DNA from: Octopus vulgaris
Lineage: Eukaryota
Reading direction: 5' to 3'
NCBI GenBank assembly: GCA_951406725.2
Contig: OX597818.1
Coordinates: 23,684,001 to 23,748,000, forward strand
Length of the DNA stretch: 64,000 nt
A program made the position numbers and the translations under genes. This document shows, piece by piece, positions 2,422 to 60,855 of this stretch. Below the pieces are notes generated by a model. The model searched no databases, was not told the DNA's origin, and saw only the letters and a program-made list of their open reading frames with translations. Within the stretch, counting starts at the first letter, position 1; every line of letters begins with the position of its first letter.

Positions 2422-2850
2422 AGGCGCAGGCGTGGCTGTGTGGTAAGTAGCTTGCTTACCAACCACATGGTTCCGGGTTCAGTCCCATTGAATGGCACCT
2501 TGGGCAAATGTTTAAATGTTTTCTACTATAGCCTCGGGTCGACCAAAGCCTTGTGAGTGGATTTGGTAGATGGAAACTGAAAGAAGCCCTTCGCATATAT
2601 ATATATGTATGTATGTATGTATGCATGTATGTATGTGTGTGTGTATGTTTGCGTGCCTGTGTTTGTACCCCCAACATCGCTTGACAACCGATGCTGGTGT
2701 GTTTACATCCCCGTAACTTAGTGGTTTGGCCTAAGAGACTGATAGAATAAATACTAGGCTTACAAAGAATAAGTCCTGGGTTCGATTTCTTCAACTAAAA
2801 GGCAGTGCTCCAGCATGGCCACAGTCAAATTACTGAAACAAGTCAAAGAG
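2422..2850 (+). mobile_element. tRNA-related SINE family A (internal microsatellite, GAGTAAA-like tail)
   Basis: GGCGCAGGCGTGGCTGTGTGGTAAG head, GGTTCAGTCCC B-box-like motif, internal microsatellite, ...ACTGAAACAAGTAAAAGAG-type tail; many copies in the window. Confidence 0.85.
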
Positions 2851-3146
2851 TATATCACCTCATAAGCACCAGAATTTTAAAAAAAAAAAAATTACACTGG
2901 AGCTGATTTGTTCAACTAAACCCTTCAAGGCAGTGCCCTAGCACGTCTGCCATCCAATGAGTGAAACAGGTAAAAGATGAAAAATAACCCTAAATCACAA
3001 TAAAACAGTACAGCATCCACGACTTTCAGGAGCATTTTTGCATGCACAGAATTGTTGAAGCATGAAATAAACTATCCACATCATATGTTAGCTGTCAGGA
3101 CACAGTATCCTTTTAAAATCCATGCTCCCAGAAAGTTCCCAACACC

Positions 3147-3361
3147 ACTCTTTACTCTTAACTCTTTTACTTGTTTCAGTCATTTGACTGCAGCCATGCT
3201 GGAGCACCGCCTTTAATCGAGCAACTCGACCCCGGGACTTATTCTTTGTAAGCCCAGTACTTATTCTATCGGTCTCTTTGCCAAACCGCTAAGTGACGGG
3301 GACATAAACACACCAGCATTGGCTGTCAAGCAATGCTAGGGGGACAAACACAGACATACAA

Positions 3362-3403
<42 letters not shown>

Positions 3404-3565
3404 GACGGGCTTCTTTCAGTTTCCGTCTACCAAATCCACTCACAAGGCTTTGGTCGGCCCGAGGCTATAGTAGAAGACACTTGCCCAAGGTGCCATGCAG
3501 TGGGACTGAACCTGGAACCATGTGGTTGGTAAGCAAGCTACTTACCACACAGCCACTCCTGCGCC
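3147..3565 (-). mobile_element. SINE family A
   Basis: Reverse complement of 2422-2850, with repeated tail (ACTCTTT)n. Confidence 0.85.
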
Positions 3566-4999
3566 TCCATGACAAAGTTATGCAGCTTTTCCTTTTTATG
3601 GCACTTTTGCTGATTGCTTTCCTGTCATTTTGTGTTTTATTCAGTGTACAATACATGTACTTTTAGCTTTTATTGCTGTCGTTCTTTATTTAATTTATTG
3701 CTGCTTTTCTGCCCTCTTTTACCCTTTCCTGACAAGTAGTAGTACATCTCAGCAATATATACAATGAGCTCATTATATGATTGATATATCTGTGCTGGTG
3801 TCTCAGTAAATAGAAACATTATGATACAACCTCGCTATTGTTTTCTTTTTTTTTTATAGAAGTAAAGGTTTGAATCCAACTTCAGAGGAATATACATATT
3901 CAGAAATAAGAAATAAGACTCTTAATTGAAACTGAATGAATATGAATATACACTAATGATGAGGTAAATAGTTTGGAAAACTATTCTCTGAATAATGTTG
4001 CTTTCTCTTAACAAAAATTTATTAACAAACAGTAGCAAAGTGAAGAAGTTCATAGACAGCTATGTATAATTTATAAAGGATTTTGTGTTCAAATTTAATA
4101 GAATACTTAAATCATTTTAATACACACACATATGCACACACACATACATGCACATGTATGTATTTGTATGTGTGTGTGTGCGCGCACGTGTGTATCTGTG
4201 TCTGTGTATGTATGTATGAATGATTGTATGTATGTATGTATGTATGTATGTATGTATGTATGTATGTATGTATGTATGTATGTATGTATGTATAATGAAT
4301 GCCAAATTTTGAACAATATAGATAAGGGTGGATATATATATATTCAATGAGATAAAAATCTTTTGGCTCATGATGAATTATTAAACATTTTGATAGAGAA
4401 AGTTAAATATCACACCCAGAAATTACTGTTTCTGTAACATAAACATAAGCTGTAAATTCTTTTTTAAATAATTGTGTCCTCATAATATGAATTATAATTA
4501 TAGCTATTATTATAGAATAATAATTATAGTTATTACCATACCAGTTATGTATTTAGTCACACCTATTTACATTTTCAGTTCAAATTCTGTTGTAGTTCAT
4601 TTTGCCTGTTATCTTTCTGGAATCAACAAAATAAGCACCAATGAAGTACTGTAATTGATTAAATTAATTAAAGCCAAGCCCAAAAGTCTCTGACCTTGTG
4701 CATCCATAAGAAACCATAATTATAAATGGAATGGTCCAGGGCAAGGTCAGCTTAGAGGAAGGTTACTTGCTCAAAAAACCTCAAGTTATAAGATGTAGAG
4801 ATTTTAGCCATCAGGATTTCATCAGATGTGGCTGGCACTCATCTCCAGCTAGGGGTGGGTGGCCAAAGGGGGCATCTACCCTAGATAATGCTTTTATGGA
4901 GGTGGCACATTTGAGTCTGATGTAGAAGCCTATATGGGCTTAAGGTCCCAGGGTGGTGATATACCCAAGGATTTCTGTAGGCAGCACACACTCTAACTC

Positions 5000-7880
5000 C
5001 ACTCCACCACTGTCTTCAATAACTCAAAAATTCATTAGACTACATGCTAAGTTGAATGGATTGTTTGGGTAAATTATAGTCATTGAAAGGTAAACTTTAT
5101 TACTGGTGTTCCCCCACTTCACATATAAGGATAAAAAAGACTAATGCACCAATTTTTTTCTTTTGCTGTAGTCAGACATTTCAAACATGACACTGTGGAG
5201 TGGCACTACTTTACTAGAAAGAATTAGGTTTAGAAGTAGAGACTATCTTTCTGGATTCAGGAGGTAAGTCAGTGGTATGGGATGTAAATGACAGTAAAGG
5301 CAGTGCCTCCAGCACTAGTAGCTACCTATGCACCCATTGGAGTAGGACATCTAAAGATTTCCCTGGGAATATCCTGCTCTTTCTAACGAGTGCAGTATTG
5401 GAATTGTATTTTAGATGCACAATGAAATTGTATCAGGCAAACCATAGAAGAAGAAGATGGAGCAGAAACCTCTAAAACCTGCTTACACATTTCCAACAGT
5501 CTGAGAGATATGGGTGGATTTCCTGAATATGCCAATGTGAACTTGGAACAAACACAGTGGGTTATTCAGATCATACTTCAAATATTCATTAGGCTAGCTG
5601 ATAGTGAAAGTATAAGGTACCCACAATTTAAACTAACTGGCTACACAGACCACTAATTTGTGATGTTGACCTAAGATTTATAAATAGGAAACTGGCTACT
5701 GGAAGTTGGATGCATCTTTCGCAGTGCATGAAGACTACAGAGACTGGATCAGTGAGATAGTCAATTAGCATTTGATGGAGGCAACAGCCAACAATAGGAG
5801 GCATGATACTCTGAAGAGGGCAATTAAATCTGAATTGATAGCATTTAGGAAAGAGCTAGTGAAAGACATAAGTAGATCAGAAGGATAGCTAGTTATTAAA
5901 TGAGAAGTAATTAGAAATGGCATCATGACCAATGTGATAGTAGTATGAATGTCCCTCAACCATTTCTTCAGTGCAAAACACAAAGGCTGGGTTGTCATCT
6001 CCAATAGTCTCATCTATGACAACGTTCATTTCATGTGACACATCACAGAGGGAACAGATGATAAATCTGGCAGTGATGGGGCCCTGATCAATTTGGATCA
6101 GGCAAAGGCTTTTGGGTAGGTGGCCATTGCTACTTGGTAGCAGTCTGAAAAGAAACCAGTTTCATACCTGTTTCTAGAGGCTAGATTGCAGCAAGGCACA
6201 ATGGCACTTACTTAGTGGTCAAGTGAATGACCACCTATCAGGACCATTTTATATCATGTACTCAGTCCATCAGGATTGTTCTCTCTTATCTCTTCTATAC
6301 ACACTAGCCCACAAGCCATTGCTGCAGAAACTAGAACTCTTAAAGAGCATCCCTTTCATGCTGGGATGCTGGAGAGCTGTGTCAGTGTATGCAGATGACA
6401 TCACCATAATGGTTGTGGACACCATAGAATTGCAAGTAATCAATTCAATTCTAAAGGTATATGAACCAATAGCAGGAGCAAAGATAAATCAGAACAAGTT
6501 AGTGGGTGTGCAGCTTGGTAGCTGGAAAGACAAGTTTATACTGTTGAACAGTATAGTATTAGGTTGTCAAGAAAGTTCTTGCAGTTTTTAACCTTTAAAT
6601 TCAGATGCACATATCTCGGCTCAAACAAAACTTTATTAATCGAAATAAACACTATCAGAATCAACACACTTTTGCCAATGTGAAACAAGTTTATTCATGC
6701 CAGTAGCATAAAAATCCTGTGTTCTGGTGACAATGAAGTTGTTGAAGGTGTGTTTGGCATCGTCTTGGTTTTTGAAGCATTTCTCATGCAGAAAATTGTT
6801 GAGATGCTTGAAAAAGTGGTAGTCAGTAGGTGAGAGGTCTGGTGAGTATGGCAGATGAGGCAGAGTTTTGTAGCCCAATTCATTCAACTTCTGCAGGATC
6901 AGTTGTGCGATGTGCGGCCAAGCATTGTTGTGGAGAAGAATTGGTCCTTTTCTATTGACCAATGCTGGCTGTTATTGTTGGAGTTTTTTATGCATTTCAT
7001 CCATTTACTGACAGTACTTCTCCACTGTAATGGTTTCACCTGGAACTAAAAAGCTGTGATGGATAAGACCAGCCGCAGACCACCAAACAGTCACCATGGC
7101 CTCCTTTTGGTGTAACTTTGGCTTTGGGAAGTGCCGTGGAACTTCGTCGGTGTCCAACCACTGAGCTGAGTGTTGCCAGTTGTCATAAAGAATCCACTTT
7201 TCATCACAAGTCACAATCTGGTCAAGAAATGGGTCATTCTTGTTGCATAAAAGAAGGGAAGACGACACTTCAAAACGGTGTTTTTTTTGGGTATTTTTTA
7301 TTTTTCCAATCTCTTTCAAGTGGTTGAAAATTGTTGTATATGTTACGTCTAATTCAGAAGCAAGCTCTCAAACAGTTGTGCATGGATTGGCTTCCACTAA
7401 GGCTCTTAGTTGATCATTGTCAACATCTTATGGCAGACCACTACGCTTATCATCTTCAAGACTCTTGTCACCGCTACGAAATTTCTTGAACCACCATTGT
7501 GCTGTATATTCATTAGTGGTTCCTGAGCCAAATGCATCATTGATATCGCAAGCTGTTTCAGCAGCTTTTTGGCCTAGCTTGAACTGGAATAAGAAAATTG
7601 TGCAAATTTGCTTTTTGTCCATGTTGTATTCAACATTCCAGAAAAAAATGGCTTAATAATTCAAAAAGAAAAAAAGTAACACGATTAGATAGAGCGAAGA
7701 ACAGGCTTTAAAATGATATATAAAGTCAAAGTAATTTAATGAGAATTAATTTGGAAATACATCATTTAAAACCAAAATTTAAAATTCCACAAGAATTTTC
7801 TTGACAACCTAATAGATTGTTGGGTAGATGATCTGGTTAAATTATTTTAGATATGGTTTAATACAGACTTATAACTGGAA
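5000..7880 (+). mobile_element. Degraded L1/Tx1-like LINE ORF2, interrupted by a mariner
   Basis: LINLDQAKAF, HQDCSLLSLLYTLA (QG motif decayed), YADDITI and GAKINQNK; similarity continues past the mariner (WVDDLVKL). Left boundary approximate. Confidence 0.75.
6559..7812 (-). mobile_element. Mariner transposon (Hsmar1/cecropia-like), defective
   Basis: TIRs TTAGGTTGTCAAGAAA...TTTCTTGACAACCTAA with TA on both sides; transposase pieces MDKKQICTIFLFQFKLG, VTCDEKWILYDN, LHNNAWPH and YSPDLSPTDYHFF, with stops and a deletion. Confidence 0.95.
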
Positions 7881-49896: not shown

Positions 49897-50496
49897 CATC
49901 TTCATTTACAATGTTCATTTCTTGTAATGTTTCTCGCTATTTCTAGCTACCACATAATGTTTCATGGGAAGGTAGTATCTAGAGGACATTTTCTTACAGT
50001 TGACAATGATGTGCCTTATATATTTAGTTTTACTTTTGCATAACCTACTGTAGCGGCAATTCGAAACCTAACCGCTAGGTAACCGATCAAACACCACGAC
50101 CGGACCACAGTAGTTTCACGTGATCGGTCTATTAAGCAGCCAATCAGCGTAAAGCCGTCGCGTGATTCAATGTTCAAGAATCGCGTCTTTTGGTGCCCAC
50201 ATTTTTTGAAGAATGTTGAGGCAGCTGAGCAAACTGCATTTACATTCTTGCCATCAATTGGTTCCTGACATTTATATTTATATATATATATCATAATAAT
50301 AATAATAATATTAGGAAGTATGGCTCCAAACTTACAGGGAAAAATTAGATTTAGTATTAAATCAAATTTCACAGTATAAATATATAAAATATGAATTAGA
50401 GATAAAACCACTATTATATTAATCATATTTATATTATTTGTTAATTATGTATTGGTTTATGTCTATCACTGTTTGAGTTACCCCTAATTCATATTT

Positions 50497-50535
<39 letters not shown>

Positions 50536-50547
50536 GTATATATATAC

Positions 50548-50580
<33 letters not shown>

Positions 50581-50960
50581 CTAGCAGTATCGCCCGGCGT
50601 TGCTCAGGTTTGTAAGGAAATAACTATAAAGCATTTTTAGAGAGTTATAGCCAAAAAATAGCAAAAAAATGGAAAAAAAATGATGGTAAATTGTTTTTGA
50701 GAGTTAAAAAAGGTGGAGTTGCGTCCCCTAGACGGTCTGTGGTTTGGGTTTCTGATTCTCGACCCCATGTCGAATTTATCGATTTTTTTCAGAACTGGGG
50801 GAACTTTTCAAAATTTTCGCTGCGTTAGTTTTGAATTATGACATTGGGCTATGTGTGTGTCAAGTTTCATCAGAATTGGTTGAAAGCCGTGGTCAGAGTG
50901 AGGGTACGAGAAAACAGACACACAGAAAACGCACAGACAAACTGCCGTTTATATATAGAG

Positions 50961-50961
<1 letters not shown>
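50581..50961 (-). mobile_element. Non-autonomous Helitron-like element (copy of 13106-13489) in (TA)n
   Basis: Near-identical sequence with the same CTAG/hairpin and TC termini. Confidence 0.8.
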
Positions 50962-50998
<37 letters not shown>

Positions 50999-51001
50999 TT
51001 T

Positions 51002-51126
<125 letters not shown>

Positions 51127-51474
51127 AGTTATTGGTATCTAGAAGACCCAAAGAATGGCAGGTAATGCTAAGTAAGTGCTAAGGACAGACCATAGATAAA
51201 CTCTTGGTTCGATTGTGGATCATTCATACCACAAAACCCCTTCGAATGTGCAACACAGAATCCACAGTTTCATACTTGGAAATGACTAAACACGAACTAC
51301 TATCGAAACTTACATACCATGTACAGGAAACTTTTTTACCACTTCTGTACACCACTTTACTCGAATAATGGAACTGCAACTACAATATTTTATATGTTAT
51401 TTCCACTTTCATTCTCTTATTTCCCTCTGTTTTCACTATCTTCTCCTTTTCCACTTACTTGTCTCACATCATCC

Positions 51475-51514
51475 CTGATGAAGGGATATCCATAATATCC
51501 CAGAAACAGCTGTA
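51475..51514 (+). ncRNA. Hammerhead motif in a Penelope-like pseudo-LTR
   Basis: CTGATGA-a-GGGATAT-ccata-ATATCCC-a-GAAA-CAGCTG-TA; palindromic stem III; stem I poorly paired, so probably decayed. Confidence 0.65.
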
Positions 51515-51591
51515 AGACTGTAAGACTATATCGCTTTCCTTATAAATGTCCTAAAAACTCCTCACAACCTTGCCTTTGTTACCTATTTTTG

Positions 51592-51668
<77 letters not shown>

Positions 51669-52796
51669 CAGTAATAGAAAATAGGACTTGAAAAGAACCA
51701 GGTGAATATACAAACTAATATATAGTGACGAAACAGTTCAACTAGCTATCTGAAACGATCGTAACGTAGAAACAACATGAGCTTAATTTTTTGTTGCTCT
51801 CTCTCTGTCCTCTCTCCTTTCCCGCTCTCTCTCTTTCTCTCCCTCTCCCTCTATATATATTATTGATCCATCTTAGTGTTGCCAACTGAGCAGAATACGC
51901 TTCGCTGATGAAAACTTATAAGACCGAAACATATATGCTTATTTTCCACCAGTTGGATGCAAACACCAGATTCACTCTAATCTGCATTGTCTATATTATC
52001 CAAAATCTTTTATTAGCAGACCTTTTCTTCGGTGCTTATTGTTTTCAGATTTAAACACCTCTAAAAGGTCATTTTTGTCAACAATATGTCAGACAGACAG
52101 GGAGAGTATGGGAGGAGGGAGAAGAGAGTGTATGTGTGCGTGAGTGCGTGCGTGTGTCTGTGCGAGTGTGTGTGGACCTGCTCTACGAGACTCCGGGTTT
52201 ACGAGTTTTATTTTACAATAAATACAAAAAGGTTATTGTCTCTAGGGAGAGTCATTTTGCTTTAATGCCTTATTAATTAACACCCTTATCGGTTCGATTT
52301 CCACTCATTTTTTTTCTAACATTTTCGTTGTTTCTTGCACCCTCTTCTGATGCGTCTACGTAGCGACTGTGTAAAATGACGGCATAAAATTTCATTGCTA
52401 CTATAGGAAATTATTGCTCTGCTTTACGAGTTTTCGCTTTACGAGCGATCTCCGGGAATAAATTTACTCGTATATCGAGGCGTTACTGTGTGTGTATGTA
52501 TATACACACGCACGCACGCAGACACACACACACATACACACACACACACACGCTCAAGCAGTGGGCCTTTGTACTGTTTCCGTCTACCAAATTCCACTCG
52601 TAACAAAAATATTTGCTAAATATAGCAAATATATGTTAGCTATTTATTTACTTTTTCTTCCAGTTCACCACACAATCGACAAACGTATTATTATTAAAAC
52701 TTGTACAGTCGGAAATGTCTCAGTTTCGGCAAAAATTTCATGTTTTCCTATTTTGCAATGATGGCGGTGAGTGTCTTTCACATAGTAGAGCTTCCT

Positions 52797-53209
52797 TAGG
52801 GCGGCGAGCTGGCAGAAACGTTAGCACGCCGGGCGAAATGCTTAGCGGTATTTCGTCTGCCGTTACGTTCTGAGTTCAAATTCCGCCGAGGTCGACTTTG
52901 CCTTTCATCCTTTCGGGGTCGATTAAATAAGTACCAGTTACGCACTGGAGTCGATATAATCGACTTAATCCGTTTGTTTGTCCTTGTTTGTCCTTTCTGT
53001 GTTTAGCCCCTTGTGGGTAGTAAAGAAATAGGTATTTCGTCTGCCATTACGTTCTGAGTTCAAATTCCGCCGAGGTCGACTTTGCCTTTCATCCTTTCGG
53101 GGTCGATAAATTAAGTACCAGTTGCGTACTGGGGTCGATGTAATCGACAATCCGTTTGTCTGTCCTTGTTTGTCCTTTCTATGTTTAGCCTTGTGGGTAG
53201 TAAAGAAAT
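52797..53209 (+). mobile_element. SINE family B dimer inserted as one unit
   Basis: Full monomer plus a 5'-truncated monomer, flanked by 17-bp TSD ACATAGTAGAGCTTCCT (52780-52796, 53210-53226); CpGs intact. Confidence 0.9.
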
Positions 53210-54186
53210 ACATAGTAGAGCTTCCTAGGACAAAGGACATTGTAAAAACCCTTTCACATCCCAAACAGTGATAGGTTGGAATTGCAAGCCAGTTTTTCAT
53301 CCATCATCCCCTAGAAATTTAAGTTGAGCGTTTCTATACGCTTATTTGAACCACATCATTTTTCATCTTGACTGGGTTTGACCTTGGAGGAACTTTGAAA
53401 GTAAATTATTGCAACTTACTAAACATTACACGAAAAAATTACTTTTAGTAAACTAAAAAGATTTCTTTTTTTTATTTGCTTATTTTCTTTTTTGTCTTTA
53501 CTTGTCAAACATATATTTGTGTGTGTATGAGTTGGAATGTAAGTGAAAGACCCTTAGTCTTCGGGAACTCTGATGAAACAACCGAGGCTCCTTTTGCATC
53601 TAATGATATCGTCTGTGAGGCAAATGCATACGTTGTGTAGAGAGTGAGAACGATCATATGCAAGGCTTTTCCTCACTTCAACATCTCTATCATGCGTTGC
53701 ATATTGTGGTTGGCCATAGTCGAAAAATTACTTGAAATGAAGGCACGTGTCAGCATGGGTGATAACCTCTATAAACACTTGCTGTAAGAAGGGCTCATCG
53801 CTCCACATCTGTGCTGATTTAAGAAAACAATCAAGTGATGGCATTGCTCATATACATATATATATATAAGAGTGCGGTGTTGCTGGGTATCACCATAGAC
53901 TCTGCTACACCATTATTTGGAACCTCCTCTGATATGTGGCATTTGGTGAATGAGGGAGTTTGATGCTGCTGCCCTCATCTGTGTTTCTTGTCGTGAGATA
54001 GGCTCATCTGGAACACAACCTTTAGTCAAAAAAATCGACCACAGGACTTATTCTTTGTAAGCCTAGTACTTATTCTATCGGTCGCTTTTGCCAGGCCGCT
54101 AAGTTATGGGGGCGTAAACACACCAACATCGGTTGTCTAGCGATGGTGATGGGACAAACTCAGACACACACACGCACACATACACA

Positions 54187-54291
<105 letters not shown>

Positions 54292-54633
54292 ATACATACA
54301 TACATAATTTATAATATCAGGGTAATAAAGATTTTAGAAATTTTTACTACCAGTGGCCTAGCGTATAAAAAGTTAGTCAATAGACTATATATTATTCATA
54401 TAAAATACAGTGTACATTTAAACACATTAAAAGGCTTCCAACATAATCTTTTAATGTACAATGTATTTTATATATATATATTATAAAATAAATATAAGAG
54501 AGTGGTCACTATATGGCTCACTCTAGCACCAGTTAATCCAAAAGGTTTCAACCACTAAAAATACATGTTTCCCATGAAAGTCAGTACGATTGTTAGCTCA
54601 CACGGACAGGGCAAATAAAAAATAACAAAAATA

Positions 54634-54729
54634 CAGATTATTTTGGGACAATTGTTTCGCTATTAATGAATTAAATGTAATTTTACTTACAAAAAAATCC
54701 ACTTGTAGCTCGTCAGCCTAAACTATCTG
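54634..54729 (-). ncRNA. Type I hammerhead ribozyme, copy 1
   Basis: As 55678-55773, with one substitution in stem I (54719). Confidence 0.8.
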
Positions 54730-55169
54730 GATGAAATCCACTCAATCACACGCCAGATTTTACCATAACGATAAATACGCGTGTGGTTCAATTGATTACA
54801 TCCGACGTTATAATTCAAATGCCCCAACTAACAGCGCGCCAAACTTTCACGGAAAACAAATACAGCATTTAGAAATAAATGCAGCATAATTATAATTAAT
54901 TAATAAGGGTGAGAGAATTAGATACTAATTTAATAGTATATCCATTCAACACCAAGTGGCCTAGTGCTCCGAGAAACCTGGATTATTATAATATTTTATA
55001 ATATATTATAATATTTTTACAAAATAAATATAAGAGAGTGGTCACTATATGGCTCACTCTAGCACCAGTTAATCCAAAAGGTTTCAACCACTAAAAATAC
55101 ATGTTTCCCATGAAAGTCAGTACGATTGTTAGCTCACACGGACAGGGCAAATAAAAAATAACAAAAATA

Positions 55170-55265
55170 CAGATTATTTTGGGACAATTGTTTCGCTATT
55201 AATGAATTAAATGTAATTTTACTTACAAAAAAATCCACTTGTAGCTCGTCAGCCAAAACTATCTG
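55170..55265 (-). ncRNA. Type I hammerhead ribozyme, copy 2
   Basis: Reverse complement of 55678-55773. Confidence 0.85.
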
Positions 55266-55677
55266 GATGAAATCCACTCAATCACACGCCAGATTTTACC
55301 ATAACGATAAATACGCGTGTGGTTCAATTTTGGATTAACTGGTGCTAGAGTGAGCCATATAGTGACCACTCTCTTATATTTATTTTGTAAAAATATTATA
55401 ATATATTATAAAATATTATAATAATCCAGGTTTCTCGGAGCACTAGGCCACTTGGTGTTGAATGGATATACTATTAAATTAGTATCTAATTCTCTCACCC
55501 TTATTAATTAATTATAATTATGCTGCATTTATTTCTAAATGCTGTATTTGTTTTCCGTGAAAGTTTGGCGCGCTGTTAGTTGGGGCATTTGAATTATAAC
55601 GTCGGATGTAATCAATTGAACCACACGCGTATTTATCGTTATGGTAAAATCTGGCGTGTGATTGAGTGGATTTCATC

Positions 55678-55773
55678 CAGATAGTTTTGGCTGACGAGCT
55701 ACAAGTGGATTTTTTTGTAAGTAAAATTACATTTAATTCATTAATAGCGAAACAATTGTCCCAAAATAATCTG
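55678..55773 (+). ncRNA. Type I hammerhead ribozyme, copy 3
   Basis: CAGAT-ag-TTTTGG / CTGACGA / GCTA...TAGC (extended stem II) / GAAA / CAATTG / TC then CCAAAA-ta-ATCTG; all core nucleotides canonical, GUC cleavage predicted after 55760. Confidence 0.88.
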
Positions 55774-56291
55774 TATTTTTGTTATTTTTTATTTGCCCTG
55801 TCCGTGTGAGCTAACAATCGTACTGACTTTCATGGGAAACATGTATTTTTAGTGGTTGAAACCTTTTGGATTAACTGGTGCTAGAGTGAGCCATATAGTG
55901 ACCACTCTCTTATATTTATTTTGTAAAAATATTATAATATATTATAAAATATTATAATAATCCAGGTTTCTCGGAGCACTAGGCCACTTGGTGTTGAATG
56001 GATATACTATTAAATTAGTATCTAATTCTCTCACCCTTATTAATTAATTATATATATATTATATATATTATATCCCAACTGATATTCCTGTATGTTATAT
56101 TTTAATAATTACTGGTATCTATATATATTAATATATTTTATATGTAAAGCATAATATGTTATACATATATAGGTAATTCTTGTAATTGTCATTTTAGTAA
56201 ATAAGTAAATAAATAAATTGACATAATATAATGTCTAAAAGTTGATGAACCACCTATTGATCCCATCCATTTTCTTATTGCTTATATTATA

Positions 56292-56354
<63 letters not shown>

Positions 56355-56387
56355 TGTATGTGTGTGTGTACATGTGTGCGTGTGTAA

Positions 56388-56442
<55 letters not shown>

Positions 56443-56651
56443 ATACTAATACATCTATTTGTTGTCTACGCCACCTGTCGTCGTCTTTTGCTTTTTTGTG
56501 AATTCTCCCTATATATATATATATATATATATATATCGTAGTTATACTGTATATGTTTTTGTATGGGTGTAAGGATATAACTAGATAACAAACCCATCAA
56601 TCTGTGAGGATGAGGGAGAAAAGGTTGAAAATTACTGACATGAATGTTTAT

Positions 56652-56716
<65 letters not shown>

Positions 56717-56920
56717 TGTGTGTTTGTGTGTGTGCATGTGAACATTTCTTCCTTTTACTTTTATGGTGTGACTTTAGGTAGAAGAATAAATAAATGATAT
56801 TATTATTAGCTTTCTGTCAAAGTTTTGTTTTTTTTTTTATCTCTTTGTCTCTTTTTAACAGAATAGATAAGAAATTGTTTCTACTATTCAGCAGCACTTG
56901 TGCAAAGTATATAAGTTGTA

Positions 56921-58308
56921 GGTACTTGTCAATTGTCGTGGTCCCGGTTTTGCACACGCGAATTCGCGCGCGCGCGCGCCAGACGTAGGTACTCCATACT
57001 CGAGATCCTACGAGGTGACTTGCGCATGCGCAGTGCAGAATTCGCGCGTGCGCGTTAAACCCCCCCCCCTAAAAAAAAAGGTGTTGGATTTCACTAAAAA
57101 TATATATGTGTGTGTGTGTGTGTGTGTGTATATATAACATTTTCAATTTTACACAAAAAAATTACATAGTCGCTTTCCTCGCGGATTTACAGAGAAATGA
57201 ATTAATTACTATTTTACAGAATAAAATTAATGAATTAATTATATAAATTAAATAATTCTTGAAAATTAATTAATATTAATAATATTTTTTGAACAAAGTA
57301 AATAATTTATAAAACTTGGTTAATAATTTTTTTTACACAAACGCGAACGTATATAATTTGTGAAACTTTTTTTTTTTTTTTACAGACGTATATAATTTGG
57401 TAAACTTAATGAATTAATTTCTTCTCATCATCATCATCATTTAACGTCCGTTCTCCATGCCAGCATGGGTTGGACGGTTCGACCGGGGATCTGGGAAGCC
57501 AGAAGGCTGCACCAGACTCCAGTCTTATCTGGCAATGTTTCTACAGCTGGATGCCCTTCCTAACGCCAACCACTCCGAGAGTGTAGTGGGTGCTTTTTAC
57601 ATGCCACCCGCACAGGTGCCAGGCGAGGCTGGCAACGGCCACGGTCGGATTGGTGCCAGTCGAGGCGGCTCTGGCATCGGCCACGATTCGGATAGTGCTT
57701 TTTACGTACCACCAGTCCAGGGGTCCTGGCATTTGCCGGGTGCCACACTTGCCCCAACATGTCTTCGCAAGCAAAGGGGGTTGGCATGGGTGCCTGTCGT
57801 GGGATGAGGTTCGATATCAACTTCGCTTGCCTCAACAGGTCTTTGTGTATAAATGTATAAATTTTTCGCACTAAATTCTTTCCGTAGAATTTATCAAAAA
57901 ACGCGCAAAATTATTCCGTAGACTTTATCAAATTAAAAAACGCAAAATTAATATATTTTTTGAAATTGCAAATTATTTAGAATATAAAACAAATTAAGTT
58001 AAATTTTAAAAATAAATGTCATATACTTATACTCTGTAAGGTGCTGTGTTCACACTTCAATTTACTATTTTCTAGAAATGTTGCTTTTCTAATTGAAACA
58101 ATTTTTCTCAATCTCCATTTAAAAGTCCATAATGCCTCTTGAGCCATATCAAAATGAACAACTTTGAATTACCCGGTGGTGGTGGTGGTGGTGGTGTGAG
58201 GTTCTAATTTTTTTCTGATCTCTCTTTGCCCCCCCCCCCTAGATGGAGGTGTGGTGGGGAGACAGATGAAAGATGTTTCATTCTCTACTATATATGTATA
58301 TATATATA

Positions 58309-58347
<39 letters not shown>

Positions 58348-60063
58348 TATATAGAAGGAGCTTCTACAGGACTAGTACTGTTTCATTCAAGAGCTTCCTG
58401 AAGATTTCTCTTGAATGAAACAGTACTAGTCCTGTAGAAGCTCCTTCTATATAATAAATTAATTTTACTCTGCTATGTATTGAGTACCTTACTTACTGTG
58501 GTTAACCCCGAATCAACCCGGGACCTACATATATATATATATATATATATATTTCTTAAACCTACACGATATAGTCTATAAATTTGGGATGTTTTTGAAA
58601 GATAATATATTTTGTCATCAGAATATATATACTTTCTCACACTACAATTAAGATATATTTATTTTAAATCGTTCATCTTTTCCCGCGACAACAAAAATTG
58701 GGCGCGAAAATTTTTCTAAATATTAGCTGAATGAACAACTGAGATAAAGAGGGGGCAAAGAGAGATCAGAAAAAAAATTAGAACCTCACACCACCACCAC
58801 CACCACCACCGGGTAATTCAAAGTTGTTCATTTTGATATGGCTCAAGAGGCATTATGGACTTTTAAATGGAGATTGAGAAAAATTGTTTCAATTAGAAAA
58901 GCAACATTTCTAGAAAATAGTAAATTGAAGTGTGAACACAGCACCTTACAGAGTATAAGTATATGACATTTATTTTTAAAATTTAACTTAATTTGTTTTA
59001 TATTCTAAATAATTTGCAATTTCAAAAAATATATTAATTTTGCGTTTTTTAATTTGATAAAGTCTACGGAATAATTTTGCGCGTTTTTTGATAAATTCTA
59101 CGGAAAGAATTTAGTGCGAAAAATTTATACATTTATACACAAAGACCTGTTGAGGCAAGCGAAGTTGATATCGAACCTCATCCCACGACAGGCACCCATG
59201 CCAACCCCCTTTGCTTGCGAAGACATGTTGGGGCAAGTGTGGCACCCGGCAAATGCCAGGACCCCTGGACTGGTGGTACGTAAAAAGCACTATCCGAATC
59301 GTGGCCGATGCCAGAGCCGCCTCGACTGGCACCAATCCGACCGTGGCCGTTGCCAGCCTCGCCTGGCACCTGTGCGGGTGGCATGTAAAAAGCACCCACT
59401 ACACTCTCGGAGTGGTTGGCGTTAGGAAGGGCATCCAGCTGTAGAAACATTGCCAGATAAGACTGGAGTCTGGTGCAGCCTTCTGGCTTCCCAGATCCCC
59501 GGTCGAACCGTCCAACCCATGCTGGCATGGAGAACGGACGTTAAACGATGATGATGATGAGAAGAAATTAATTCATTAAGTTTACCAAATTATATACGTC
59601 TGTAAAAAAAAAAAAAGTTTCACAAATTATATACGTTCGCGTTTGTGTAAAAAAAATTATTAACCAAGTTTTATAAATTATTTACTTTGTTCAAAAAATA
59701 TTATTAATATTAATTAATTTTCAAGAATTATTTAATTTATATAATTAATTCATTAATTTTATTCTGTAAAATAGTAATTAATTCATTTCTCTGTAAATCC
59801 GCGAGGAAAGCGACTATGTAATTTTTTTGTGTAAAATTGAAAATGTTATATATACACACACACACACACACACACATATATATTTTTAGTGAAATCCAAC
59901 ACCTTTTTTTTTAGGGGGGGGGGGTTTAACGCGCACGCGCGAATTCTGCACTGCGCATGCGCAAGTCACCTCGTAGGATCTCGAGTATGGAGTACCTACG
60001 TCTGGCGCGCGCGTGCGCGAATTCGCGTGTGCAAAACCGGGACCACGACAATTGACAAGTACC
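56921..60063. mobile_element. Foldback/Mutator-like non-autonomous element with ~1.3-kb TIRs
   Basis: Arms 56921-58233 and 58751-60063 are near-perfect reverse complements; GGTAC...GTACC termini; 9-bp TSD TAAGTTGTA (56912-56920, 60064-60072). Confidence 0.9.
58391..58443 (+). ncRNA. Type I hammerhead ribozyme in a hairpin pseudo-LTR
   Basis: GAGCTTC / CTGAAGA / tTTC-tctt-GAAt / GAA-ACAG-tactagtc-CTGT-A / GAAGCTC: 7-bp stem I, GUA site; lies within a perfect 52-bp-arm hairpin at 58342-58459. Confidence 0.8.
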
Positions 60064-60855
60064 TAAGTTGTATTTGTTCCCTATCATCCTGTGTTGTATT
60101 ATATAGAGTAGTCTTTGTAATATACTTCAGAATTATTGCTATACTCTCTTATACAAATCATGAACATAGTACGGCACATTGTTCCGGGTTCAATCGGACA
60201 AAATGACTTCTTCACTTATCTCGAGCCGACCGAAGCCTTGTGAGTGGATTTGGTAAACGGTATGCGTGTGTGTGTGTGTATGTGTTGTTTCTCTATGTGT
60301 CTGTGTTTGTCCCCCACCACCGCTTGACAACCGGTGTTGGTGTGTTTATGTCCCCGTAAACTAGTGGTTCAGCAAAAAAAAAACATCGATAGAATAAGTA
60401 CCCGGCCTAAAAAAAGTAAGTCCTGGGGTCGATTTGTCCGACTAAAACCCTTAAGGCGGTGCTCCAGCATGGCCGCGACTAGATACATGCATACGTGATA
60501 TAGATACATGCATGCATGAACATACGCACTTACAAACACACACACGGGCGCGAACACGCACGCACGCGCAAACATACACACACATACGCGCGCGCGCATA
60601 GAATGGTGTATCGCAATGACAAGATTGATGTCAGATTTCCAGACGAAGAAGTTGACAGTTCGAGTCATACCTCGAGTATCCTGCAGTCACTGTAGTCAAT
60701 ACATTTAACCCTGATTCGATTCAGCTGTGCTTCCATGTATCACCAACAGGTACAACAATAGGAGCTGTTAATTACTAATGAACGAATGCTTTGTGAGCTG
60801 ATCAAGTCGAGGTCAAACCTGGCCGGTGGTTCGGACTTGGCAACGGAGAACCATT

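Follow-up and report, generated by a model that had tools for sequence, protein, structure and literature searches.

Introduction

Non-LTR retrozymes of metazoans are described as short tandem units of low GC content that lack open reading frames (ORFs), carry a type I hammerhead ribozyme, occur as dimers to multimers and are found together with Penelope-like elements (PLEs) (PMC7229834; Li, Clavereau and Pollet 2026, bioRxiv 10.64898/2026.07.22.740005). Cleavage and circularization of the RNA have been shown for other retrozymes (PMC7229834). Reverse transcription of a circular template by a PLE has been proposed as a hypothesis, and the mobilization route and the enzyme are stated as open (PMC7229834; Li 2026). 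A Penelope insertion is recognized by an inverted truncated copy and a tail at one end, and the origin of the tandem and inverted structures of PLEs is also stated as open (PMC8557442). A Penelope-type protein cuts and extends both strands in vitro from two internal reverse-transcriptase (RT) start sites, between which the tail lies (PMC11167929).

The window analysed here is the whole stretch of 64,000 nucleotides from Octopus vulgaris. It contains an insertion of a 536-nt family that is a young, ORF-less non-LTR retrozyme: there is a hammerhead in every unit, the units are short and tandem, from dimer to multimer, GC content is below 50% and nothing is coded. The geometry of this insertion was compared with that of its relatives across the genome and with that of candidate partner elements.

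Materials and methods

The family was counted with a 28-mer marker from the unit, which gave 1,083 exact matches genome-wide against none for the reversed control. On contig C1, 97 marker matches correspond to 40 loci; scaling from these gives about 450 loci genome-wide. A DNA search with the unit returned 912 candidates, 40 of which were scored, with 97–100% identity among the matches listed. All 40 C1 loci were taken, so that the sample is unbiased for length. Loci L072, L103 and L104 were dropped as DNA-level duplicates of L102, leaving 37 independent C1 loci. A wider set of 73 non-redundant loci comprised the C1 loci and the best-scoring loci elsewhere, 11 overlapping loci having been dropped before counting. 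Unit numbering starts at window position 55336; the hammerhead core begins at unit position 356 and cleavage is predicted after 425.

Older and more distant relatives were sought with a degenerate stem III motif (746 matches, compared with 52 for the control). Among 30 loci with this motif, nine are ORF-less older relatives of the unit (63–80% identity over aligned parts), and a further nine have a related hammerhead, located in several cases 3′-terminally in a longer element. One locus, L141, held an RT frame, which was used in a further search for candidate partner enzymes.

Results

The insertion in the window

The repeat at 54485–56052 has a period of 536 nt and a GC content of 0.32. A first-pass annotation of this DNA had described a 536-bp unit repeated 1.6 times on one strand and 1.35 times on the other, joined at a 2-nt TT overlap; the period, both arms and the junction were re-measured and agree. 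It had also noted one substitution among near-identical copies, at 54719, and this is the only internal difference among the window copies. The features of the insertion are listed in Table 1. Arm B contains an internal copy of site A at 55922. At other loci the junctions are overlaps of 0–3 nt or short inserts. A 14-nt AT-only string is found at both outer ends of the window insertion, which is compatible with a target duplication and equally with its absence.

Table 1 Features of the retrozyme insertion and its flanks, in window positions
Feature	Position	Strand	Details
Left (TA)n-like target flank	54469..54484	.	Sequence
Arm A	54485..55329	-	845 nt, 1.58 units; 3′ end in RNA sense at fixed site A (54485), 5′ end (55329) random
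Downstream hammerhead of arm A	54634..54729	-	One mismatch in stem I, at position 54719; cleavage predicted between 54647 and 54646
536-nt monomer RNA predicted from cleavage at both minus-strand sites	54647..55182	-	Inferred
Upstream hammerhead of arm A	55170..55265	-	Identical to plus copy; predicted cleavage between 55183 and 55182; mapped from unit
Head-to-head junction, 5′ ends of both arms	55328..55329	.	2-nt TT microhomology
Arm B	55328..56052	+	725 nt, 1.35 units; 3′ end in RNA sense at fixed site B (56052), 5′ end (55328) random
Type I hammerhead	55678..55773	+	Core 55691-55697 and 55749-55752; predicted cleavage after 55760; fold, stems, covariation
Structured domain around site A	55878..55979	+	Hairpin 55883-55908; a long-range helix showing compensatory changes
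130-nt tail between sites A and B	55923..56052	+	At one outer end only; GGTG/CACC-closed hairpin 55990-56035
Right (TA)n-like target flank	56053..56073	.	Sequence

Reading round the unit gave no frame longer than 87 aa (longest stop-to-stop frames of 47 aa in sense and 87 aa in antisense), in line with its earlier description as ORF-less. An ORF for RT and GIY-YIG endonuclease is absent from the window element, which is therefore not itself an autonomous PLE; it works like a passenger of PLEs. Its ends are internal sites joined to (TA)n, unlike the termini of LTRs. Elsewhere in the window, positions 56919–60065 hold a near-perfect 1.3-kb inverted repeat (98–100%) around a 556-nt spacer, with a further hairpin at 58355–58446; this is a foldback element or an assembly artefact.

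The hammerhead ribozyme

The three complete type I hammerheads claimed for the window are present, with core and stems. The plus-strand copy folds into the described stems I and II with an energy of −28.3 kcal/mol (z −5.0), which none of 200 shuffles equalled; stem III, consisting of 2 bp and an AATT palindrome, was read off the sequence and is absent from the computed fold. The Rfam models that had been proposed as a check gave no hammerhead family at E ≤ 1 in 50000–60000, the only matches being microsatellite-driven miRNA families. Both minus-strand ribozymes from which a monomer was to be released were seen, one of them with a stem I pair broken at 54719.

Across the older subfamilies all six inner stem I pairs have changed on both sides. 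Over the whole structure 14 of 31 pairs have done so, including the helix enclosing site A, a count equalled in none of 500 shuffles; the structure was drawn from the same sequences, which represent about four lineages only, so the shuffle count should not be read as a probability. The inherited variants of the young family, looked at also for an excess of A>G (12 A>G, 8 T>C), do not avoid the ribozyme (11/55 versus 27/121), and there is no selection signal. Core position U4 is changed in a haplotype that fills whole arrays (L081, L083), and G8 in five of the ten units of one L031 arm. Changes at U4 and G8 of the hammerhead core affect cleavage. The change G8C is treated in PMC11167929.

At the free core position N7 (unit position 360, window 55695) two changes have become established in successful lineages, at ten loci each. 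Further type I hammerheads with a long stem II and a palindromic stem III were seen in L044 (2156), L058 (45), L094 (5477), L098 (1991) and L078 (2423 and 3419), the pair in L078 belonging to a head-to-head insertion of the candidate partner family H1 described below. A long stem II is common in the Octopus genome studied.

Fixed outer ends and paired arms

When loci were compared genome-wide, inner ends varied and outer ends were fixed. In the 37 independent C1 loci, 56 of 56 arms have their outer end at unit position ~51 (site A) or ~181 (site B), which are 130 nt apart. The ends had been expected to be permuted in the unit; this holds for the inner ends, which are random, and fails for the outer ones. 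The older relatives end at the same A and B sites, and several have head-to-head arms.

Two arms are present at 19 of the 37 unbiased loci. All 19 pairs are head-to-head with one A end and one B end, which independent 50:50 choice would give about once in 500,000. The inversion is no incidental feature; it is the normal two-strand product. Of the 42 multi-piece loci in the non-redundant set of 73, 39 have one A and one B end, and A+A or B+B combinations are absent; the exceptions are L006 (site A, an internal fragment, then site B), L026 (a B arm with a fragment lying at a distance) and L044 (a chimera, see below). Arm lengths correlate within loci (rho 0.56, p 0.013, n = 19), as a single reaction would give. 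In C1, (TA)4 adjoins 54 of the 56 outer ends and 15 of the 18 inner ends of single arms, which identifies the (TA)n tract as the target and bears out the (TA)n targeting that had been suggested. An inverted 5′-truncated copy, a tail at one end only and a microsatellite target make up a Penelope-like insertion signature, which the family shows, and priming from two sites on two strands is very probable.

As a separate observation, L094 contains at ~2500–4500 another array, both tandem and inverted, whose period is close to 507 nt and which faintly resembles the unit; it adjoins a retrozyme arm.

Circle or multimer as template

The RT stop rate along C1 arms is flat (1.1–1.9 per kb in six length bins to 3.6 kb), and mutations near inner ends are in slight excess only (2.0 versus 1.3 per kb). 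Arms reach 10.2 units, arrays of 11–13 units occur, and two complete ribozymes lie within one arm at 11 of 37 C1 loci. The predicted cleavage bond was crossed 178 times without an indel at unit positions 415–431, and one inner end in 56 lies 3 nt or less from it. On cleaved linear monomers RT would halt at this bond, so the lack of a pile-up or indel there points to a continuous template, either a circle or an uncleaved multimer.

Variants within arrays help to separate the two. Twenty variants fill a whole array, each in one of the 73 loci. Two of them were followed genome-wide by exact match, which misses copies with a second change: the first has exactly four copies, all in both arms of L083, and the second (X) has six. 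Four of the six fill all four units of L099 (X-X-X plus X), and the other two are units 1 and 3 of the three units of L208 (X-Y-X). Linear read-through of L208 would yield X-Y-X, yet one L099 arm is X-X-X, which argues against a linear template. At two-armed loci, 30 variants are array-wide, a further 46 occur in a single unit and are missing from the unit of the opposite arm in the same register, and three of ten partial variants are common to both arms in register. A monomer re-read many times fits the array-wide variants best, and the predicted monomer circle is probably the main template. Copies of more than unit length had been attributed to reverse transcription round a circle; given the continuous template and the private array-wide variants, this stands as the best explanation. 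Of 22 listed sequencing runs under five organism labels, 19 contain half or more of the sequence words, the kind of run being guessed or unknown. Two observations on assembled contigs from four of these runs carry no weight as evidence: a 565-nt contig of X1 joins the end of the unit to its start, as a tandem DNA array also would, and A>G differences in contigs of X2 and X7 need matched DNA to be read as editing.

The strongest competitor keeps the enzyme and start sites and takes as template an uncleaved linear multimer transcribed from long source arrays, the ribozyme being incidental. Unprocessed RNA was the main in vitro substrate in PMC11167929, and the arrays of 11–13 units and the spread of core-mutant haplotypes are in keeping with such a template. 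So are the mosaic long arrays (L027, L031, L033, L097 and L208, two of which carry core mutations), in two of which, L033 and L097, a variant is common to both arms in register, as an oligomeric or linear template would give. A linear multimer needs, however, a parent uniform for each private haplotype; for the L083 variant none is found in the assembly, which is of one haplotype, so that absent parents may exist. The sole other carrier of the L099 variant is X-Y-X, not X-X-X, and the 46 unshared single-unit variants stand against three shared ones. As a general account this explanation is unlikely, although it likely applies to a minority of insertions; the mosaic arrays suggest that in some events the template was an oligomeric circle or an uncleaved multimer.

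An RT that jumped from the end of one cleaved linear monomer to the next, in place of reading a covalent circle, would also produce array-wide variants and mosaic arrays, and template switches do occur, as seen from short duplicated fragments at the junctions of L006, L037 and L049. The clean crossings of the cleavage bond and the absence of inner ends piled up there make this account improbable. Still less probable is that short insertions became multimeric later, by unequal crossing-over or slippage as in satellite growth. One insertion duplicated at the DNA level (L072, L102, L103 and L104, with a common junction and flank) has gained or lost whole units between its four copies, and L031 is mosaic in a way that conversion could produce; in many loci, however, both arms are multimeric with correlated lengths, the stop rate is flat across unit boundaries, and identities of 98–100% between copies leave little time for such growth.

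Relation to Penelope-like elements

In 76 loci, not one retrozyme arm passes into an ORF. A few of the loci have old PLE remnants nearby, separated from the retrozyme by (TA)n or other sequence. Copies always attached to a Penelope ORF, the finding that would have spoken for an ordinary pseudo-LTR, were thus not what was seen. The absence of an ORF and the A+B geometry typical of PLEs are consistent with the suggested mobilization in trans by a Penelope-type RT, and judged by its sequence the family is almost certainly a non-autonomous Penelope-type element. That the insertion is the pseudo-LTR of a 5′-truncated ORF-bearing element or an assembly artefact is largely excluded: the architecture does match Penelope-like insertions (PMC8557442) and the window inversion is known from the assembly alone, but besides the lack of ORFs, arms longer than the unit continue into the same unit and 39 loci share the geometry with different junctions.

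The search with the L141 RT frame found young families with open frames of 842 aa (H3), 981 aa (H1) and ~1,090 aa (H2). Intact Hydra-type ORFs of 842–1,091 aa are accompanied by the same kind of hammerhead and by two ends in (TA)n. The Hydra clade is defined by RWK, DKT and a CxCX5C linker together with the lack of CCHH. In a motif scan of one ORF per family, DKT and CxCX5C were present in all three, RWK in H1, RWA in H3 and neither in H2; CxxH and CCHH were not found in these ORFs. By eye, the RT motifs of H1–H3 read like the published Hydra rows, including YRDD. All three families have (TA)n insertion and a canonical hammerhead, and are 4.5–5.0 kb in length. Pfam and PDB sequence searches of the Hydra ORFs gave nothing useful.

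The candidate partner families share the insertion geometry of the retrozyme. Of 14 H3 loci picked by their B′ tail, eight have a second, opposed arm, and all eight second arms end at A′; one H1 pair has the same A′+B′ geometry. In L197, L199 and L206, H3 B′ arms have their inner ends at A′ (+35 to +49 from cleavage), as if a second polymerase had been blocked where the first started.

A direct link is given by L044, where a retrozyme A arm and a retrozyme fragment are followed by an H3 A′-to-B′ segment in place of the B arm. This segment is identical to young H3 copies at 74 of 75 nt (99%); the H3 copies with a demonstrably intact ORF are more distant, at 93% identity in that tail. The simplest reading of the sequence is one integration that used both RNAs; a retrozyme insertion beside a young H3 stub is possible. 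A Hydra-clade partner is considered probable, the link to it being this single chimera. The unit itself has no significant similarity to 19 intact Hydra loci (best E 0.12), and its 78% identity to the 3′ half of the L134 ribozyme over 50 nt arises partly from the construction of the search.

The first partner candidate was a young Neptune-like PLE family (L108–L110), likewise inserted in (TA)n. Many of its 781-aa frames are intact, a 359-aa frame lies upstream, and the pLTR measures 456 bp. It has no similarity to the unit, and the hammerhead core is absent from the L108 pLTR; it is a possible partner but was ranked below the Hydra families. A 34-nt likeness in L108 was dropped as chance (E 0.69). 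A CTCACC-type motif 16–17 nt before site B, common to the unit and H3, was set aside as weak, being folded differently in H3. In the TA tail of one Neptune-like copy (L109 ~6545–6990, the same place as L062) lies a different short hammerhead-bearing head-to-head element, one end of which falls in a site A-like tract ~160 nt beyond the predicted cleavage position.

Discussion

Family size, fixed ends, A+B pairing, head-to-head polarity, random inner ends, seamless multimers and array-wide variants are direct observations. Taking them together, we favour, with fair confidence, the reading that the window holds one insertion of a young protein-free retrozyme, made in trans by a Penelope-type RT-endonuclease, probably of the Hydra clade, and mostly from the predicted 536-nt circle. 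In such a cycle an arm with two ribozymes would be transcribed, cut twice and ligated into the circle. The enzyme, probably a dimer, would cut both strands of a (TA)n tract; site A would be primed from one DNA end and site B, 130 nt away, from the other. Both polymerases would run towards the 5′ side of the RNA, travel round the circle across the religated cleavage bond and end at random points. The two cDNA ends would then be joined head-to-head by microhomology, or one arm alone would be fixed. The dispensability of hammerhead cleavage in vitro and the lack of strand bias between start sites reported in PMC11167929 weigh against this cycle.

A stronger version is offered tentatively, at somewhat less than even chances: a Hydra-clade RT dimer on one ribozyme-made circle, a true rolling-circle template, would prime both (TA)n strands from two fixed sites with both polymerases circling. 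The same two-site cycle, which is seen in autonomous Hydra elements as well, would account for the tandem and inverted arrangement of PLEs generally and for their tail at one end. If true, this would be a natural circle-templated, two-strand integration reaction targeted to (TA)n. The insertion geometry turns two published hypotheses into sharp tests. A young, short and abundant family beside naturally intact candidate partners offers a substrate of 536 nt, start sites mapped at two positions and an enzyme class that can be named, with which both retrozyme mobilization and the structure of PLEs become directly testable in vitro. As yet the finding carries no implication for host function.

The retrozyme class is known; the mechanistic footprint of paired fixed ends was not found in the literature searched. 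Neither PMC7229834, from whose text, life-cycle supplement apart, the words 'inverted' and 'rolling' are absent, nor the main text of Li 2026 describes twin 3′ ends at fixed sites, A+B arms joined head-to-head or variants that fill an array. Subscription papers excepted, the literature searched reports no cephalopod retrozyme, no paired fixed retrozyme ends and no array-wide variants. Like the metazoan non-LTR retrozymes described, the window unit is ORF-less, low in GC and tandem with a type I hammerhead, forms dimers to multimers and co-occurs with PLEs (PMC7229834; Li 2026). At 536 nt it exceeds the 150–450 bp given in PMC7229834 and lies within the 51–972 bp of the Li 2026 preprint. Xenopus retrozyme families are homologous to the pLTR of their partner (Li 2026), whereas the Octopus unit has no clear pLTR homology beyond the 3′ half of the ribozyme.

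The candidate partners share with the Hydra-clade PLEs of Craig et al. 2021 (PMC8557442) the motifs DKT, CxCX5C and YRDD, the lack of CCHH, (TA)n insertion and canonical hammerheads, and by eye resemble the published Hydra-1_Obim (PMC8557442 File S1). They differ in length, the published elements being generally <3 kb and H1–H3 ~4.5–5 kb, and in having a hammerhead with a long stem II and a tail of 80–120 nt.

The closest mechanistic parallel is the Poseidon PLE of Anolis (PAc; Frangieh et al. 2024, PMC11167929), which likewise has two internal RT start sites 3′ of a hammerhead, AT-rich targets, cutting and extension of both strands and a tail separating the start sites. It differs in being autonomous and in having adjacent sites (the tails of PLEs are 30–40 bp), whereas the window element is non-coding with a tail of 130 nt. 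PAc was studied on linear RNA, where sites and strands were not paired; in the retrozyme the pairing is strict.
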